From Acidobacteriota bacterium (GTDB lineage: Bacteria; Acidobacteriota; UBA6911): a stretch of DNA of 64,000 bases. A program made the position numbers and the translations under genes. The stretch is taken from positions 26,350 through 90,349 of the forward strand of contig JAISUT010000047.1 in NCBI GenBank assembly GCA_031271905.1, in the 5' to 3' direction. The notes under the pieces are model-generated. The model saw only the letters and a list, made by a program, of their open reading frames with translations, ran no database searches and was not told where the DNA came from. Positions 32,750 to 39,882 of the stretch are shown here, piece by piece. Position 1 is the first letter of the stretch; every line of letters begins with the position of its first letter.

Positions 32750-34681
32750 ATGCGGTTGCCATCGAGAGAAAGTCGCAAACGGGCGGGGACGGGCGCGGTC
32801 ACGCGCAGGCGGCCGCAGACGGCGGGCAAGTCCATCGCCTGCGCGCTGCTCCTGCTGCTCGCGACCACGCCGGGCGTCGGCGCGGTCGCCGCACCCCCCG
32901 AAGACGCCCCGTCGCAGGAGACCGTCCTCGACACGGTGGAGTTCAAGCAGGCGCGGATACAGGACGTGGTGCGCACCATCTCCGAACTGACCGGCGTCAA
33001 CATCGTCGCGACATCCGAAGCCGGCAGGAAGGAGGTCACCCTGTTCGTCCGCAACGCTTCGGTCGCCGAGATCGTGGACAGCGTCTGCCGCATCGCCAGC
33101 CTCTGGTACCGCTACAACCCTGAAACCGGGGTGTTCATCGTCATGACCGCCGAGGAGTACCAGAAGGACATCGTGGTCTACCGCGACGAGCTGGTGCGCA
33201 TCTTCCAACTGCAATACCTCAACGTCGGCGTCGCCGCGCGCGTCGTCGCCGACCTGTTCGGCGACCGGGTGGAGCTGCTCGGGCGCGCCAACCGCCACCT
33301 GGGCGACGACTTCCGCATCTCGTCGTCGGACGCCGACAGCGAGTCCGTCTTCGAGGACGACTACGACGAGGGGGACATGGAGGGCGGGAGCGGTTACGGC
33401 GGCTACAACGGCTCGTCGGGCGGTTATGGTTCGAGCGGGCGGCGGCGTTCGCGCTCCTCGTCATCCTACAGCCGCGACTCCCGCTACGGCAGTCGCAGCC
33501 AGAGGGGCGATGAGATCCAAGGGCTCAGGGACGAGAAGCTGACGCCGGAGCAGATCGCGCGGCTGGAGGCGAGCACGGCGGGTTCGCAGATGGTCGCCGA
33601 GGGGACGGTGGGGCGGATCGTGCAACGGGGCGAGTCGGCGACCATCTACGTGACCGTCAACCGTCCGCACAATTTGCTGCTGGTGCGCACCTCGGACGAA
33701 AAGGCGATGGCGGAGATCGAGAAGATCATAAAGGCCTCCGACCGGCAGACGCCGGAGGTGCTGCTGGAGATGAAGGTGCTGGAAGTCCGGCTGACCGACG
33801 AGTTCCAATCGGCGTTCGACATCAGCGGCCTGACGGGCGCCACCCAGACGGGCCCCGCCGACGGACAGCCCGCCAACCCGCTGGACACGTCGTCCAGCTC
33901 GTCGCGCACCGCCGTGCTGGGGCTGGGCAACGGCACGCTGCAAGGCGGGTCGATGATCTTCCAAGTCCTGAGCGGCAACCTGCGCGCCCGCATGCAACTG
34001 CTCGAACGTGAAAACAACGTCAGGATGCTCGCCACCCCCATGCTGCTGGCGGCGAACAACCACCCGGCGCGGCTTTTCATCGGCGAGGAGACGGTCATCA
34101 CGACCGGCTTCGAGACGCAGGGCCAGGGCGGCGGGGTGGACGGCGCCTACATGGTCGTCAACTCGATCCCCGTGCCGGTCACCGAGGTGCGCAGCCTCGG
34201 CAACACCCTGTCGATACTCCCGTCCATCAACGCCGACCGCTCCGTGGTGATGCGCATCGTGCATGAGAACTCCACCATACACCCCGGCGGCGGCAGCATC
34301 CCCATGCCCATCGGGAGCAGGCTGGAAAACGTGGCCGTGGACACGGTGGACACCTCGCGTCTGGAGGGGACGGTGCTGGCGATGGACGGCATGACGGTCG
34401 CGGTGGGGGGGATGATGCGCACCACCAGCAGCAACGACAAGTCGAAAGTCCCGGTGCTGGGCGACGTGCCGCTGTTCGGCTTCCTCTTCCGCGACCAGAC
34501 GAAGTCGGAGGTCAAGACCGAACTCGTGTTGTTGATCACGCCGCACGTCATCAGCGCCCCCGACCAGGGGGAGGATGTGACGCGGCGGAGCCTGACGGGG
34601 TTGCGGGAGACGATGCTGCAACATCCATACGAGTTGGACATCTACATCGACAAGCAGGGACAAGGAGGGGAAGGAAGATGA
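32750..34681 (+). CDS. secretin (GspD/PilQ family) outer-membrane channel
   Basis: C-terminal secretin domain ...VPVLGDVPLFGFLFRDQTKSEVKTELVLLITPHVI. N-domains plus an unusual RS/GY-rich low-complexity insert. Confidence 0.85.
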   Translation: MRLPSRESRKRAGTGAVTRRRPQTAGKSIACALLLLLATTPGVGAVAAPPEDAPSQETVLDTVEFKQARIQDVVRTISELTGVNIVATSEAGRKEVTLFVRNASVAEIVDSVCRIASLWYRYNPETGVFIVMTAEEYQKDIVVYRDELVRIFQLQYLNVGVAARVVADLFGDRVELLGRANRHLGDDFRISSSDADSESVFEDDYDEGDMEGGSGYGGYNGSSGGYGSSGRRRSRSSSSYSRDSRYGSRSQRGDEIQGLRDEKLTPEQIARLEASTAGSQMVAEGTVGRIVQRGESATIYVTVNRPHNLLLVRTSDEKAMAEIEKIIKASDRQTPEVLLEMKVLEVRLTDEFQSAFDISGLTGATQTGPADGQPANPLDTSSSSSRTAVLGLGNGTLQGGSMIFQVLSGNLRARMQLLERENNVRMLATPMLLAANNHPARLFIGEETVITTGFETQGQGGGVDGAYMVVNSIPVPVTEVRSLGNTLSILPSINADRSVVMRIVHENSTIHPGGGSIPMPIGSRLENVAVDTVDTSRLEGTVLAMDGMTVAVGGMMRTTSSNDKSKVPVLGDVPLFGFLFRDQTKSEVKTELVLLITPHVISAPDQGEDVTRRSLTGLRETMLQHPYELDIYIDKQGQGGEGR

Positions 34682-35613
34682 AAGAGAACGAAGCGGGGGG
34701 GCTTGGCGCGGCATTCGCGCCCGTCCTCAGGCGAATAGGCGAGATCGTGCTCGGCAAGGAGGAGCAGGTGGAAATCGCGCTGGCATGCCTGCTGGCGCGA
34801 GGGCACCTGCTCATCGAGGACATCCCCGGCCTCGGCAAGACCGTGTTGGCCCACGCCCTCGGCGCGACGCTGGGGTTGCAGCATCGCAGGGTGCAATGCA
34901 CGAGCGACCTCCTGCCCGGCGACATCACGGGCAGCTCCGTCTACGACAGGGACAAGGGGGAGTTCCGCTTCATCGACGGTCCGGTCTTCACGCAACTGCT
35001 GCTCGCCGACGAGATCAACCGCGCCACGCCCAAGTGTCAGAGCGCGCTGCTGGAGGCGATGGAGGAGCGGCAGGTCAGCGTCGAGGGGAAGGCGCGCGCC
35101 CTGCCCCGCCCCTTCTTCGTCATCGCCACGCAGAACCCGACGGAGCAGTCGGGGACGTTCCCCCTGCCGGAGTCGCAGCTCGACCGCTTCCTGATGCGCG
35201 TCTCCATGGGCTATCCGGGGCGCGATGCCGAGATGGAGCTGTTCCGGGGAGAGGATCGGCGGCGGATGCTGGCGAAGCTCGAACCCGTCCTCACCCCCGA
35301 GGAGCTGATCGAGTTGCAAAGCCACGTGGACGAGGTGAAGGCGTCGGACGCCGTGTTGGACTACCTCTACCGCATCTTGGCGTTCACGCGCGAATCCGAC
35401 GCCTTCCAAGCGGGGCTTTCCACGCGGGCGGGGCTGGGGCTCCTGCGCGCCGCCAAGGCGTGGGCGTACCTGCACGGCGAGGAGCGGCTGCTGCCGGGAG
35501 ACATCCAGAAGGTGCTGCCTGCGGTGGCGGGGCATCGGCTGACGCCGGCGGCGGGGCGCAGGTCTGCGGAGGAGATAGGCGAGGAGATCCTTGCGAAAGT
35601 GGATGTGGACTGA
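34678..35613 (+). CDS. MoxR-family AAA+ ATPase
   Basis: Walker A GLGKT, Walker B LLADEINRA, sensor region FFVIATQNP; start overlaps secretin stop (ATGA). Confidence 0.9.
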   Translation: MKENEAGGLGAAFAPVLRRIGEIVLGKEEQVEIALACLLARGHLLIEDIPGLGKTVLAHALGATLGLQHRRVQCTSDLLPGDITGSSVYDRDKGEFRFIDGPVFTQLLLADEINRATPKCQSALLEAMEERQVSVEGKARALPRPFFVIATQNPTEQSGTFPLPESQLDRFLMRVSMGYPGRDAEMELFRGEDRRRMLAKLEPVLTPEELIELQSHVDEVKASDAVLDYLYRILAFTRESDAFQAGLSTRAGLGLLRAAKAWAYLHGEERLLPGDIQKVLPAVAGHRLTPAAGRRSAEEIGEEILAKVDVD

Positions 35614-38658: not shown

Positions 38659-38673
38659 GGGGAGGGAATCATC

Positions 38674-39882
38674 ATGCGCGTTATCTTCATTCTGTTGTGC
38701 ATCGCCGCCGCGTCCGCACCGGCCTTGGCCGGGACGCAGGGGGTGACGGAAGACTACGGGCCCGTGGTCGCGGAAATCGTCGAGCGGGGCGACAAGGCGG
38801 TCGCGGCATATGCGCCAGCGGACGCCGTCCCGACCGGGAACGAGTTCTCGCGCCTCTATTTCGACGTCTTCGAGTCGAGCGGCATGGAGTTCACCCTGAA
38901 CCTCAAGGACTCCTCGGCGATGCTGAAGATCGAGTCGGGCTTCAGCTCGATCATCAGCCAGTGCATGCGCGGAGAGCCCAAGGCCGAGGTCGAGAAGACC
39001 TGGGCGGCGATGAAGCGCGACATGGACTACGCCGTCGAGCGCTATTCGAGCGGCGGCGCGGAGCAGGGCTTCCGGGGCCGCGCCGCGCAGTCGTTCCTCA
39101 TCATCGCGCGCGAGGGGTTGGAGGCGATGCTGGTGGTGGTCGCCCTGGTCGCATACCTGCGCCGCTCCGGCTACGCCGACAGGGTGCGGGTCATATGGTG
39201 TGGCGTGGCATGCGCCTTGGTCGCGAGCGCCGCCGTCGCGTGGGTTTTCAACGCCGTCCTCGGCGCGAGCGGAGCGAACCGCGAGGCTATGGAGGGCGTC
39301 ACCATGCTGGTCGCCGCCGCCGTCCTCGTCCAGGTCGGCCACTGGCTGGCGGGCAAGCGCGACGCCGACCGCTGGAACGCCTTCATCAAAGGGAAGATGG
39401 AGCAGGCGCTGGGGCGGCGCAGCCTGTTCGCGCTGGGCTTCACCGCGTTCCTGGCGGTCTTCCGCGAGGGGGCGGAGACCATCCTGTTCTACCAGGCGCT
39501 GCTGGGCGGCGTGCAGGGCGGGCGCGGCGCGATCTGGGTGGGCATGGGGCTCGGGGCGGTGGCGCTGGCGGGAGCATTCCTGCTCATCCGGCTCGCCTCC
39601 GTCCGTCTGCCGCTGGGACCGTTCTTCGGGGCGACGGCGGTCTTCCTGTTCGGCATGGCGTTCATGTTCGCAGGCAAGGGGGTCTTCGAGTTGCAGGCGA
39701 GCGGGTGGATCCCCACCAACGGGATCGAAGGGTGGCCGATGGTGAGCTGGCTCGGCGTATTCCCCACGCGCGAGACCCTGCTGGGGCAGGCCCTCGTGCT
39801 GGCGACGCTGCCGTTGGGCTGGCTGTGGCTGCGCCGCAAGGGGAAGCCGCACCCTGCGCCAGCCGCCGTCGCGGGCAGGTGA
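38674..39882 (+). CDS. FTR1-family high-affinity iron permease with an N-terminal periplasmic extension
   Basis: Two REXXE motifs (IIAREGLEAM, VFREGAETILF), seven TM segments, and a signal peptide plus ~140-aa periplasmic N-domain. Confidence 0.75.
   Translation: MRVIFILLCIAAASAPALAGTQGVTEDYGPVVAEIVERGDKAVAAYAPADAVPTGNEFSRLYFDVFESSGMEFTLNLKDSSAMLKIESGFSSIISQCMRGEPKAEVEKTWAAMKRDMDYAVERYSSGGAEQGFRGRAAQSFLIIAREGLEAMLVVVALVAYLRRSGYADRVRVIWCGVACALVASAAVAWVFNAVLGASGANREAMEGVTMLVAAAVLVQVGHWLAGKRDADRWNAFIKGKMEQALGRRSLFALGFTAFLAVFREGAETILFYQALLGGVQGGRGAIWVGMGLGAVALAGAFLLIRLASVRLPLGPFFGATAVFLFGMAFMFAGKGVFELQASGWIPTNGIEGWPMVSWLGVFPTRETLLGQALVLATLPLGWLWLRRKGKPHPAPAAVAGR

Follow-up and report, generated by a model that had tools for sequence, protein, structure and literature searches.

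In Pseudomonas aeruginosa, the co-transcribed genes PA2875, PA2874 and PA2873 encode, in this order, a MoxR-type ATPase, a DUF58-type protein and TgpA (PMC3507681). The latter is an active transglutaminase that faces the periplasm and has been proposed to function at the cell wall; the published cluster consists of PA2875-PA2872 only, and neither secretion nor FTR1 genes are mentioned in that account (PMC3507681). Inner-membrane FTR1/EfeU permeases with two REXXE motifs are shared by EfeUOB/M and other FTR1 transporters, and an imelysin gene paired with a DUF1111 (di-haem peroxidase) gene has been described as a Fur-regulated iron-uptake context, likened to EfeUOB, in which the permease EfeU is of the Ftr1 type (PMC3143127). 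Type II secretion is required in Shewanella for surface placement of iron-reducing cytochromes (PMC1974784), and Shewanella MtrC/OmcA and the 'atypical' Pul/OxpG system of Geobacter, which secretes OmpB, provide a precedent for a T2SS that delivers iron-redox proteins to the cell exterior (PMC1974784, PMC3543383); these systems serve respiration, and their linkage to MoxR/TgpA or FTR1 has not been reported.

We analysed a 64,000-nt stretch of DNA from an Acidobacteriota bacterium (hereafter the window), in which a T2SS/T4P-like machine, MoxR, DUF58-like and TgpA-like proteins, and an FTR1 permease are encoded on one strand. In the literature, we found no description of an FTR1 system coupled to MoxR/DUF58/TgpA and a secretion machine. 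With moderate confidence, and judging function from gene content, we read the composite locus as an undescribed envelope-spanning iron-acquisition supercluster. The locus is widely distributed, and the window array is its compact local version. It brings together (i) an atypical T2SS/T4P-like machine of pilins, assembly proteins, MshEN-GspE ATPase, GspF, a PilP-like protein and secretin, (ii) a MoxR AAA+ ATPase with DUF58-like and Cys-less TgpA-like membrane proteins, and (iii) an FTR1/EfeU-type iron permease.

The same-strand array and its junctions

Five plus-strand genes form the distal end of one ~16-17-kb same-strand array (23623-39882, possibly to 40521). A short-form secretin gene (32750-34681; Secretin Pfam 4.6e-37) ends in a TGA at 34679-34681 that overlaps the ATG (34678-34680) of a MoxR-type AAA+ ATPase gene (34678-35613; Pfam AAA_3 4.4e-60 and AAA_lid_2). 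The moxR TGA (35611-35613) in turn shares 1 nt with the ATG (35613-35615) of a gene for a DUF58-like membrane protein (35613-36548, TAA at 36546-36548; Pfam DUF58 9.2e-5), which is followed by genes for a TgpA-like inner-membrane protein (36574-38658, TAA at 38656-38658; Pfam TgpA_N 8e-50, Transglut_core 2.8e-17 and DUF4129) and an FTR1/EfeU-type iron permease (38674-39882; Pfam FTR1 4.9e-21). The junctions given in the initial annotation were borne out: the ATGA overlap (34678-34681) was read directly from the sequence, the moxR/DUF58 overlap is TGATG at 35613, and the ORF ends and starts leave 25 nt between DUF58 and TgpA, where no alternative in-frame TgpA start was found, and 15 nt between TgpA and FTR1. 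By direct reading, AAGGAGG lies 9 nt 5' of the moxR ATG; GGGGAGGG is the Shine-Dalgarno sequence of the FTR1 gene.

A promoter/terminator scan found no site at the secretin-moxR junction, hence no signal splitting the two genes, and no plus-strand terminator-like site from 24924 to 40607. The first such site (40607-40622) follows a plus-strand rubrerythrin gene (39979-40521), which lies 96 nt 3' of the FTR1 gene, is not conserved in relatives and is of uncertain membership in the gene unit. The proposed operonic coupling to the secretin gene is real in the window, but the ATGA is peculiar to this genome: in relatives, secretin and moxR are 40-274 nt apart or are separated by other genes, and in some of them a separate Fur box precedes moxR. 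Because the overlap is not conserved, a single transcript is not general.

Upstream, still on the plus strand, the array opens with a small lipoprotein-like ORF (23623-23925), of which a 59% identical copy lies 5' of a pseudopilin gene in L001, and continues with a 270-aa prepilin-type pseudopilin (23962-24774) conserved in relatives, a conserved secreted or lipoprotein-like protein of 192 aa (24782-25360; 45-57% identical in the closest loci) for which family searches gave no match, and a second prepilin-type pseudopilin, of 390 aa (25372-26544), recognized by profile matches. Next come a 622-aa assembly protein (26563-28431) in the PilM/N or GspL position, which is conserved in relatives, with neither an HMM nor a PDB match, and a 235-aa membrane protein (28555-29262) that was compared with relatives, takes the PilO or GspM position and had no match in the HMM search. 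A GspE/PilB-type assembly ATPase with an MshEN N-terminal domain (29264-30922; T2SSE 6e-116, MshEN 1.4e-11), a GspF/PilC-type platform protein (30926-32158; profile matches) and a small conserved periplasmic protein in the PilP/GspC position before the secretin gene (32161-32736; its L081 orthologue gives a weak PilP match) complete the series. Ahead of the array, also on the plus strand, lie a small conserved ORF of about 71 aa (20411-20626) without a match in a Pfam search, which has 59-67% identical copies just 5' of the pilin gene in L068, L071, L060 and L020, and a large prepilin-type protein of 340 aa (20871-21890; N_methyl / IV_pilin_GFxxxE) with a GFTLLE N-terminal methylation motif, which is 50-60% identical in L004, L060, L068, L069 and L071.

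With Gsp, type IV pilus and MSHA systems this machine shares a GspE/PilB-type ATPase with MshEN, a GspF/PilC platform, several prepilin-type proteins and a secretin whose best match among solved structures is T2SS GspD (2.4e-20). In contrast to Gsp, Pil and Msh, every window component falls under the NCBIfam equivalog cut-offs (the ATPase reaches 455 bits with the GspE model, against 630), GspC/L/M and PilM/N/O HMMs have no match in the window machine, and the pilins, at 270-390 aa, are unusually large. Most relatives differ further by an extra PilT-like second ATPase and a DUF3438 C-terminal secretin domain, which the window secretin lacks.

Cysteine loss in a distinct TgpA subfamily

The MoxR protein carries Walker A (GLGKT) and Walker B (LLADE) motifs and matches PDB 2r44 (5.9e-62). 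The DUF58-like protein scores 22.2 bits, just below the 23.4-bit cut-off, and its alignment to the DUF58 profile is confined to positions 1-34 of 216, with the hallmark motif alone matched; a vWA body was not detectable by profile comparison, and the 'vWA' label given earlier is thus not demonstrated.

The TgpA-like protein has the architecture of P. aeruginosa TgpA, a multi-pass membrane domain at the N terminus and, in the periplasm, a transglutaminase-fold domain (E 5.9e-34 against structure 6g49), followed by a C-terminal DUF4129 domain with an invariant ECP motif. Whereas P. aeruginosa TgpA keeps Cys-His-Asp and has measured transglutaminase activity, the window protein has Ala430/His474/Glu490 in these places, Ala430 aligning with Cys404 of 6g49, and its subfamily is Cys-less throughout: a Cys at this position occurs in 0 of 120 close homologues and is missing from 27 of 28 secretin-linked copies. 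Among 150 library-wide TgpA representatives, the 31 top-scoring are all Cys-less, the first Cys-His-Asp sequence ranks 32nd, and 110 of the other 119 have Cys-His-Asp. At the level of sequence, Cys loss is thereby shown to mark a sharply bounded, distinct TgpA subfamily. Since the nucleophilic Cys is missing, thiol-based cross-linking by the TgpA-like protein, which the initial annotation had envisaged, is ruled out.

Transglutaminase folds without the nucleophile serve as binding or scaffold modules in erythrocyte band 4.2 and Rad4/XPC. These are eukaryotic cytoplasmic or nuclear proteins, and their homology to the TgpA-like protein is limited to the fold superfamily.

Conservation of the composite locus

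In a secretin-anchored comparison of 80 loci, 53 had at least 5 kb downstream; 22 of these carried a MoxR orthologue, in 20 cases downstream on the same strand. Where the secretin was at least 47% identical and the flank sufficient, MoxR-DUF58-TgpA-FTR1 lay downstream in 8/8 loci. The triad was not found within 10 kb in 31 of the 53 (Methylophilaceae, Planctomycetota and others), so the secretion machine can exist without it nearby; imelysin/DHOR were also absent from 28 of these 31, and both genes occur in the triad-less loci L011, L012 and L039. Such loci may have their triad elsewhere, an arrangement seen on the Pontibacterium contig. Anchoring on TgpA, we found T2SS/T4P-like genes beside the module in all six contexts examined (a JGI metagenome contig, Termitidicoccus mucosus, Pelobacter propionicus DSM 2379, Ca. 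Nitronauta litoralis, Thioflavicoccus mobilis and Pontibacterium).

The linkage is thus not missing in related genomes: the composite block occurs in six phyla and persists through rearrangement. Thioflavicoccus has the module and secretion genes in convergent orientation, Motiliproteus (L071) in divergent orientation, and the association is kept despite inversions and re-orderings in L014, L018, L071, L085 and L086. A T2SSG pseudopilin gene lies 3' of FTR1 in seven loci (L001, L002, L006, L008, L009, L023 and L083), after the cytochrome gene following FTR1 in L084, and between DUF58 and TgpA in Azoarcus (L075). Pairwise-identity matrices of GspE/GspF and MoxR/TgpA/FTR1 correlate across 16 loci (Spearman 0.76-0.84), evolutionary-rate co-variation being as strong between modules as within them. 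Linkage across six phyla in several orders and orientations argues for a functional tie of MoxR/DUF58/TgpA to the secretion/pilus-like machine, and this part of the earlier proposal that the module acts on or with the envelope machine stands.

Two or three independent operons might instead belong to one regulon or be carried together on an island spread by horizontal transfer, with no mechanistic link, a deletion having abutted moxR to the secretin gene here. Such a history would fit a cross-phylum distribution at 50-77% identity, the many secretin-family loci that lack the triad, an overlap unique to the window, and a window secretin with neither DUF3438 nor a downstream Pom gene. We nevertheless consider it very unlikely, given that the linkage outlasts the rearrangements, that pseudopilin genes are interleaved among MoxR/FTR1 genes, that rates co-vary across modules as within them, and that the Cys-less TgpA subfamily stands beside this secretion family in every context examined.

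Iron-related genes, proposed function and regulation

The permease has a signal peptide and both REXXE motifs intact (REGLE 146-150, REGAE 263-267; invariant in 23 orthologues). It differs from EfeUOB/M in having no EfeO, EfeB or P19 partner in the window and in carrying at its own N terminus a conserved periplasmic domain of about 115 aa that shows no relationship to M75 (hhalign probability 0.2%). FTR1 adjoins the 3' side of TgpA in most of the loci whose sequence extends far enough (the intergenic distance is 3-94 nt in most loci with called genes and 326 nt in Termitidicoccus), and the two co-vary (Spearman 0.88). The iron permease, previously listed as following the triad, is an integral member of the block. 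These data bear on a reading in which MoxR/DUF58/TgpA chaperone or cross-link envelope parts of the secretion/pilus machine and FTR1 is a passenger downstream of them that has no relation to their task. The cross-phylum conservation of the composite and the cell-wall role proposed for P. aeruginosa TgpA (PMC3507681) speak for it, and in the alphaproteobacterial L068 and L069 the triad lies between secretin and pilin genes with FTR1 absent; the excluded chemistry and the tight TgpA-FTR1 association make it unlikely. A pure chaperone role for the triad is possible and overlaps the iron-acquisition reading.

The window lacks imelysin, DHOR, a Pom outer-membrane protein, a PilT-like ATPase and a Fur-box-like site, so its iron link rests on FTR1 and on relatives. 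There, EfeO/EfeM-like imelysin (Peptidase_M75) and di-haem oxidoreductase (DHOR) genes lie inside or after the block and Fur-box-like sites occur (compare PMC3143127); ferric reductase and EB_dh haem protein genes sit between the two units in L071, a multihaem cytochrome gene lies between DUF58 and TgpA in Azoarcus and after FTR1 in Nitronauta, and PccH, DHOR and ferredoxin-reductase-type genes are present in some blocks. Such embedded iron-uptake/redox genes point to iron acquisition rather than the general envelope-remodelling theme suggested at first.

In the supercluster that we favour, the filament/secretion machine would carry a component for iron capture or iron redox chemistry to the cell exterior or across the periplasm, candidates being the large conserved pilin and, in relatives, imelysin, the di-haem oxidoreductase and cytochromes, while FTR1 would import the iron. 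By analogy with other MoxR systems and from topology, we infer that MoxR and the DUF58-like protein may work, from the cytoplasmic side, on the TgpA-like protein, a putative non-catalytic scaffold or adaptor that would assemble or gate the machine-permease complex.

The multihaem cytochromes and PccH of some relatives fit a respiratory/electron-transfer role as well as assimilation. The composite could then be a device for respiration or for extracellular electron transfer, serving Fe(III) reduction, Fe(II) oxidation or electron uptake, in which FTR1 handles released iron only, in line with the redox genes of those blocks and the part played by type II secretion in metal-oxide respiration (PMC1974784). 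We think this distinctly unlikely, since the compact versions (the window, L081, L005, L054 and L082) have zero cytochromes, some carriers are organisms not known for metal respiration, and Fur-box-like sites with an adjoining fur gene point to iron-starvation control. Six gammaproteobacterial loci contain 7 such sites with at most 4 mismatches, whereas local shuffles give 0.5 +/- 0.6. Fur-box-like sites lie 181 nt 5' of moxR and 5' of the PilP-like/secretin unit in L071; in L060 one precedes the small ORF and the pilin gene, and in L084 one with 2 mismatches lies 5' of the OMP-moxR unit, beside the fur gene.

The window itself holds four perfect TGTGA-N6-TCACA palindromes, against 0.01 expected. 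One (TGTGACCCTGGTCACA; 18954-18969) lies 155 nt 5' of a DAHP synthase gene, and an identical second (20210-20225), with TAGGCTAAA 44 nt downstream, precedes the small conserved ORF and large pilin gene. The third (23238-23253) lies 158 nt 5' of a divergent, minus-strand alpha/beta-hydrolase gene (22103-23080), and the fourth (23472-23487), with TAGGCTAAA 62 nt downstream, 136 nt 5' of the first gene of the plus-strand array. Because these palindromes precede the cluster and its neighbours, they suggest control by a CRP/FNR-type regulator rather than Fur in this genome.

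Junctions and composition of the gene array

Fourteen plus-strand ORFs succeed one another at 23623–39882 with gaps of at most 123 nt, and the tail of this array is formed by a secretin gene (32750–34681; Pfam Secretin), moxR (34678–35613; AAA_3 and AAA_lid_2, the MoxR type), a DUF58-like gene (35613–36548), a TgpA-like gene (36574–38658; TgpA_N, Transglut_core and DUF4129) and an FTR1 gene starting at 38674 (Pfam FTR1). The initial annotation had proposed an operonic tie between these five genes, and its coordinates and junctions proved exact when we re-read the sequence. The secretin stop (TGA, 34679–34681) and the moxR start overlap as ATGA, with AAGGAGG 9 nt ahead of the moxR ATG at 34678; the DUF58-like ATG at 35613 lies on the last base of the moxR stop (TGA, 35611–35613); the 25-nt gap before tgpA contains no alternative in-frame start; and the FTR1 start at 38674 sits behind GGGGAGGG, the preceding TgpA-like ORF ending at 38658. 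A scan of the window returned no promoter- or terminator-like site between the five genes, and the first plus-strand terminator-like site past 24924 lies at 40607, on the far side of the rubrerythrin gene downstream of FTR1; overall, the sigma-70 and terminator scans were at chance level (1 site versus 0.8 expected and 7 versus 11.3 expected, respectively). Third-position GC of 0.88–0.93 favours the plus-strand genes; long antisense ORFs, such as that of 1030 aa at 37738–40830 on the minus strand, are high-GC artefacts. Rfam and tRNA scans across the window gave no matches.

Ahead of the secretin, the array encodes, in order, a small lipoprotein-like ORF, a prepilin-type protein, a conserved 192-aa protein, another prepilin-type protein, a 622-aa protein at the PilM/N (or GspL) position, a 235-aa protein at the PilO (or GspM) position, an assembly ATPase of GspE/PilB type, GspF and a PilP-position protein. 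A terminator-like hairpin (24902–24924; 9-bp stem and T run) falls within the 192-aa ORF after the first pseudopilin gene, and could be an attenuator of read-through into the assembly genes or a chance occurrence, since the scan returned fewer sites than shuffled sequence. Upstream of the array, at 20411–21890, are a small conserved ORF and a gene for a large 340-aa pilin, which an alpha/beta-hydrolase gene (Hydrolase_4; 22103–23080, minus strand) splits from the rest; in locus L004 and similar relatives the pilin gene, unlike this interrupted arrangement, is directly followed by the pseudopilin gene. The small ORF (20411–20626, plus strand, ~71 aa) has no family match. ORFs resembling its core, at 59–67% identity, immediately precede the large pilin gene in alpha- and gammaproteobacterial loci (L068, L071, L060 and L020); for a small protein of uncharacterised function, so high a degree of conservation is unusual. 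In another alphaproteobacterial locus, L069, the copy lies ~9 kb upstream of the pilin gene, immediately ahead of the PilP-like and secretin genes.

The recognisable secretion components score highest with type II secretion models, well below the equivalog cut-offs of the Gsp, Pil and Msh models. GspE reached 455 bits (cut-off 630), GspF 293 (424) and GspD 170 (351), and the type IV models likewise fell short with PilB at 442 (676), PilQ at 109 (284) and MshL at 116 (250), while Secretin_N scored 17.5 bits in the window secretin (cut-off 28.2). The closest solved structures to this secretin are GspD proteins. In HMM searches the match to the window pilins was confined to the N-terminal methylation motif, and none was obtained for the assembly proteins at the GspC/L/M or PilM/N/O/P positions; a PDB sequence search with the PilM/N-position protein likewise returned nothing meaningful. 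The window therefore differs from a canonical type II secretion system in having neither equivalog-level GspD, GspE and GspF, nor GspC/L/M, nor the GspG-type major pseudopilin gene (T2SSG) present in relatives, and from a type IVa or MSHA pilus in having neither equivalog-level PilB, PilQ or MshL, nor PilM/N/O/P matches, nor the PilT-like gene that most relatives possess. Because its scores are sub-equivalog for Gsp, Pil and Msh alike and its secretin is nearest to GspD, we call this machine an atypical type II secretion/type IV pilus-like apparatus and place it outside any named system.

Most related secretins carry a C-terminal DUF3438 domain that is missing from the window secretin. In Termitidicoccus mucosus (5940–7850 of locus L082), the secretin in the conserved place shares just ~27% identity with that of the window, the corresponding values for GspE, MoxR, TgpA and FTR1 being 62–76%; it looks like a replacement within an otherwise orthologous block. 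The assembly ATPase carries an MshEN domain, a family that binds c-di-GMP, and genes for a GGDEF diguanylate cyclase, an EAL-HDOD protein and a hybrid histidine kinase stand in a row at 1691–6198 (minus strand), so control of the machine by c-di-GMP is possible.

Conservation and rearrangement of the linkage

We searched 80 loci from species-representative genomes, recovered with an alignment of secretin homologues, using all window proteins. A MoxR orthologue was found in 22 of the 53 loci whose secretin gene has a downstream flank of 5 kb or more (in 20 cases downstream and on the same strand), and all eight loci with a secretin at least 47% identical to the window's carried MoxR, DUF58, TgpA and FTR1 in that order. 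Carriers included Desulfotalea, Desulfobulbus elongatus, Desulfobulbaceae, Geopsychrobacteraceae, Kiritimatiellales, Pontiella, Chromatiales and Sedimenticolaceae, the betaproteobacterial Azoarcus/Zoogloeaceae, Accumulibacter, Dechloromonas, Sulfuricella, Rhodoferax and Propionivibrio, and several alphaproteobacteria. The triad was absent within 10 kb in Methylophilaceae, Planctomycetota and some other loci having secretion genes.

The converse approach started from six TgpA-like homologue contexts, picked for a long contig or a named genome and not for gene context, and secretion genes stood beside MoxR-DUF58-TgpA-FTR1 in six of six. These were a JGI metagenome contig (the closest relative, with a TgpA 67% identical), Termitidicoccus mucosus (Verrucomicrobiota), Pelobacter propionicus DSM 2379 (Thermodesulfobacteriota), Ca. 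Nitronauta litoralis (Nitrospinota), Thioflavicoccus mobilis 8321 and Pontibacterium. For ~20 more pairs of secretin and TgpA homologues the longest-contig values match in both homologue lists, some being as small as 13.5–33 kb, which implies that these pairs share contigs. The linkage of secretion genes with moxR, DUF58, tgpA and FTR1 thus extends to relatives, as the initial annotation had proposed checking, and the composite of machine, triad and permease occurs in six phyla (the window being counted as Acidobacteriota by its NCBI name) and in several gene orders.

The ATGA overlap of secretin and moxR is confined to the window among the loci compared. Relatives have 40–274 nt between the two genes, or intervening genes for a Pom-family outer-membrane protein, a di-haem oxidoreductase or an imelysin, and the compact variant comprises the window, its closest metagenomic relative and loci of Verrucomicrobiota and Kiritimatiellota. 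Within the triad, co-directional and overlapping or closely spaced in the window, the MoxR/DUF58 and DUF58/TgpA junctions overlap or nearly do so in most relatives; most have overlaps of 1, 4 or 17 nt, the others short gaps.

At larger scale the two units are rearranged, being convergent in Thioflavicoccus, divergent in Motiliproteus (L071) and re-ordered in Pontibacterium, and the triad falls between the secretin gene and the pilin gene in two alphaproteobacterial loci (L068 and L069). A GspG-type pseudopilin gene comes after FTR1 in Desulfobulbaceae, Geopsychrobacteraceae and Pelobacter, and after a cytochrome gene that itself follows FTR1 in Nitronauta; in Azoarcus (13889–16442 of L075) the DUF58-like and TgpA-like genes are separated by an insert encoding a membrane protein, a multihaem cytochrome c and a GspG-type pseudopilin. 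Inserts of similar size (~3 kb) are seen in four further betaproteobacterial loci (L070, L072, L074 and L077). Pairwise-identity matrices of GspE and GspF correlate with those of MoxR, TgpA and FTR1 at a Spearman coefficient of 0.76–0.84, compared with 0.80–0.91 within modules. Because the linkage outlasts rearrangement, the genes interleave and their identities co-vary, these comparisons argue for a functional tie between the secretion unit and MoxR/TgpA/FTR1 rather than for inherited synteny; co-transfer alone, without a mechanistic tie, is a rival explanation of the same association.

Loss of the catalytic cysteine in the TgpA-like protein

The window MoxR belongs to the MoxR subfamily of AAA+ ATPases (AAA_3, 201.8 bits with a cut-off of 27; AAA_lid_2; a PDB match to 2r44 at 5.9e-62; readable Walker A and B motifs). 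The DUF58-like protein matches PF01882 at an E value of 9.2e-5 and 22.2 bits, just under the 23.4-bit cut-off, and only over profile positions 2–34 of 216, the family hallmark motif. All eight orthologues examined match the same family (best E value 1.8e-6), and profile searches, detailed stretch by stretch for the window protein, detected no vWA body.

The TgpA-like protein has the full domain architecture, each domain scoring above its cut-off (TgpA_N, 170.1 bits; Transglut_core, 63.4; DUF4129, 42), and its periplasmic domain aligns with the P. aeruginosa TgpA structure 6g49 (E value 5.9e-34). P. aeruginosa TgpA has a catalytic triad and measurable activity (PMC3507681). Counted along the alignment, Cys404, His448 and Asp464 of 6g49 instead correspond to Ala430, His474 and Glu490 in the window protein. 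None of 120 homologues (34–100% identity) has a cysteine in the Ala430 column, where Ala occurs in 75, Ser in 19, Val in 13 and other residues in 13, and conserved cysteines in this set are found only in the cytoplasmic C-terminal region around DUF4129. Near the secretin family, 27 of 28 TgpA copies are without the catalytic cysteine, the sole exception being a distant, opposite-strand copy in Thiohalocapsa with a canonical Cys-His-Asp triad. When active-site columns were scored in an exhaustive TgpA search over 1.84 billion representatives, the 31 top-scoring representatives were all Cys-less, the first Cys-His-Asp appeared at rank 32, and 110 of the remaining 119 had Cys-His-Asp; judged by these residues, the ranking shows a Cys-less subfamily with a sharp boundary. 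A few of its members have also lost the His.

The initial annotation had suggested chaperoning or cross-linking as examples of how the whole module might act. Thiol-based cross-linking, and proteolysis with it, is excluded by the missing nucleophile, and since thiol chemistry is no longer available a binding or scaffold role appears likely; His474, Glu478, Glu490 and Asp493 are kept in the cleft of the window protein. We envisage that MoxR and the DUF58-like protein, at the cytoplasmic face, would work on the TgpA-like protein through its periplasmic domain and cytoplasmic DUF4129, and that the TgpA-like protein would serve as an adaptor in assembling or gating the complex. Other MoxR systems act in maturation and cofactor insertion, with which such a proposal agrees. 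A rival reading instead treats the module as a chaperone of the machine and takes FTR1 for a passenger.

The permease that would be a passenger in that reading retains an FTR1 domain at 75.7 bits (Pfam cut-off 25.3) and two REXXE motifs, REGLE and REGAE, that are invariant across 23 orthologues. It also has a signal peptide and a conserved periplasmic domain of ~115 aa. That this N-terminal domain might be a cryptic imelysin/EfeO-like module was rejected (profile-profile probability 0.2%), and a PDB sequence search with FTR1 gave no meaningful match.

Iron-related context, proposed function and regulation

The window differs from an EfeUOB-type tripartite system in that its 64 kb hold no periplasmic partner of the imelysin/EfeO-like or peroxidase kind, whereas imelysin (Peptidase_M75) and DHOR genes are embedded in or appended to the block in many related loci; they also occur in three secretin-family loci without the triad (L011, L012 and L039). 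An imelysin gene with a DUF1111 (di-haem peroxidase) gene has been described as a Fur-regulated iron-uptake context and likened to EfeUOB, whose permease EfeU is in the Ftr1 family (PMC3143127). In Motiliproteus, the divergent units are separated by genes for a ferric reductase, an EB_dh haem protein and DoxX, and in Nitronauta a fur gene, a TonB-dependent receptor gene and a PepSY_TM gene are near the OMP-moxR-DUF58-tgpA-FTR1 unit. Geobacter GSU3268, considered as an FTR1 gene adjoining pccH, was discarded from comparison; it is feoB-2 according to the G. metallireducens genome paper.

Fur-box-like sites (≤4 mismatches) numbered seven in six gammaproteobacterial loci versus 0.5 ± 0.6 in local-composition-preserving shuffles. 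Motiliproteus has one 181 nt upstream of moxR (3 of 19 positions mismatched) and one upstream of the PilP-like/secretin unit (two mismatches), and Pontibacterium (L060) has a three-mismatch site ahead of its small ORF and pilin gene. Nitronauta has a two-mismatch site in the non-coding gap upstream of its five-gene unit, ~540 nt before the OMP gene. Matches after the secretin genes of two other related loci, L042 and L066, were not counted, as they precede unrelated or integrase-like genes. The window itself has no site at ≤5 mismatches from the E. coli consensus, which may not suit this phylum.

None of the accessory iron and haem genes of the relatives occurs in the window, and the only iron-related neighbour there is the rubrerythrin gene (39979–40521), which follows FTR1 after a 96-nt gap containing a TATACT −10-like box; Termitidicoccus has an AhpC/Redoxin gene in its place. 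Together with a flavin reductase-rubredoxin fusion at 9377–10228, rubrerythrin is a signature of an anaerobe.

We propose that the composite would acquire iron, the secretion/filament machine exposing an iron-capturing or iron-redox component and FTR1 importing the metal. There is a precedent in Shewanella, where type II secretion serves iron chemistry outside the cell (PMC1974784). Alternatively, the composite could be a respiratory electron-transfer device. Under the iron-acquisition reading, we tentatively entertain, as a somewhat doubtful proposition, an unrecognised class of envelope-spanning iron machine, in which ATP-driven MoxR/DUF58 and a pseudo-transglutaminase adaptor would link a type IV filament/secretion apparatus to FTR1 both physically and functionally, the dead cleft of the adaptor perhaps being reused to bind a metal or a partner in the periplasm.

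FTR1 systems are well studied. MoxR-DUF58-TgpA triads are widespread, that of P. aeruginosa being known in the order PA2875–PA2873 (PMC3507681), and TgpA is essential in this species. Each part of the composite belongs to a known family; in the full-text literature covered, which leaves out most subscription journals, we came across neither the composite nor the Cys-less TgpA subfamily, nor any connection of MoxR/TgpA with secretion machines or FTR1. The triad gains a concrete setting in which it can be tested: a large TgpA subfamily that appears to have dropped catalysis is still locked to an iron permease and a secretion/pilus-like machine. The composite also suggests a bacterial route of iron acquisition using a machine of the type IV filament class. 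Cultured carriers are Pelobacter propionicus, Thioflavicoccus mobilis, Termitidicoccus mucosus, Desulfobulbus elongatus and Pontibacterium sinense, and environmentally important groups (Accumulibacter, Nitrospinota and Kiritimatiellota) also have it.

Regulation in the window seems to follow another path. The 64 kb contain four perfect TGTGA-N6-TCACA palindromes (TGTGACC-N3-GTCACA) versus 0.01 expected, all within 18.9–23.5 kb: upstream of a DAHP synthase gene (18954–18969), of the small ORF and pilin gene (20210–20225), of the divergent hydrolase gene (23238–23253) and of the first gene of the long array (23472–23487). A T-rich stretch lies ahead of each, and TAGGCTAAA after two of them. Their half-sites have the classical CRP-type arrangement and look like a CRP/FNR-type regulon; the window contains no CRP/FNR-family gene. 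Because palindromes of identical type precede them, it is probable that the array and the transcription units around it belong to a single regulon in this organism. No such site was found in the 86 related loci (1.5 Mb), so the palindrome is lineage-specific, and control has been rewired between lineages.

The DAHP synthase gene (19124–20173), which has its own palindrome, has a counterpart at the end of the Pelobacter propionicus block (18152–19267 of L083). The two proteins show no similarity by tblastn and have only their Pfam family in common; the adjacency may be a coincidence or a link to aromatic or chorismate-derived compounds. Elsewhere in the window, and unrelated to the composite, the minus strand at 52180–56529 encodes a 1448-aa fusion of two BcrAD_BadFG ATPase domains and DUF2229, of the CoA-enzyme activase type.
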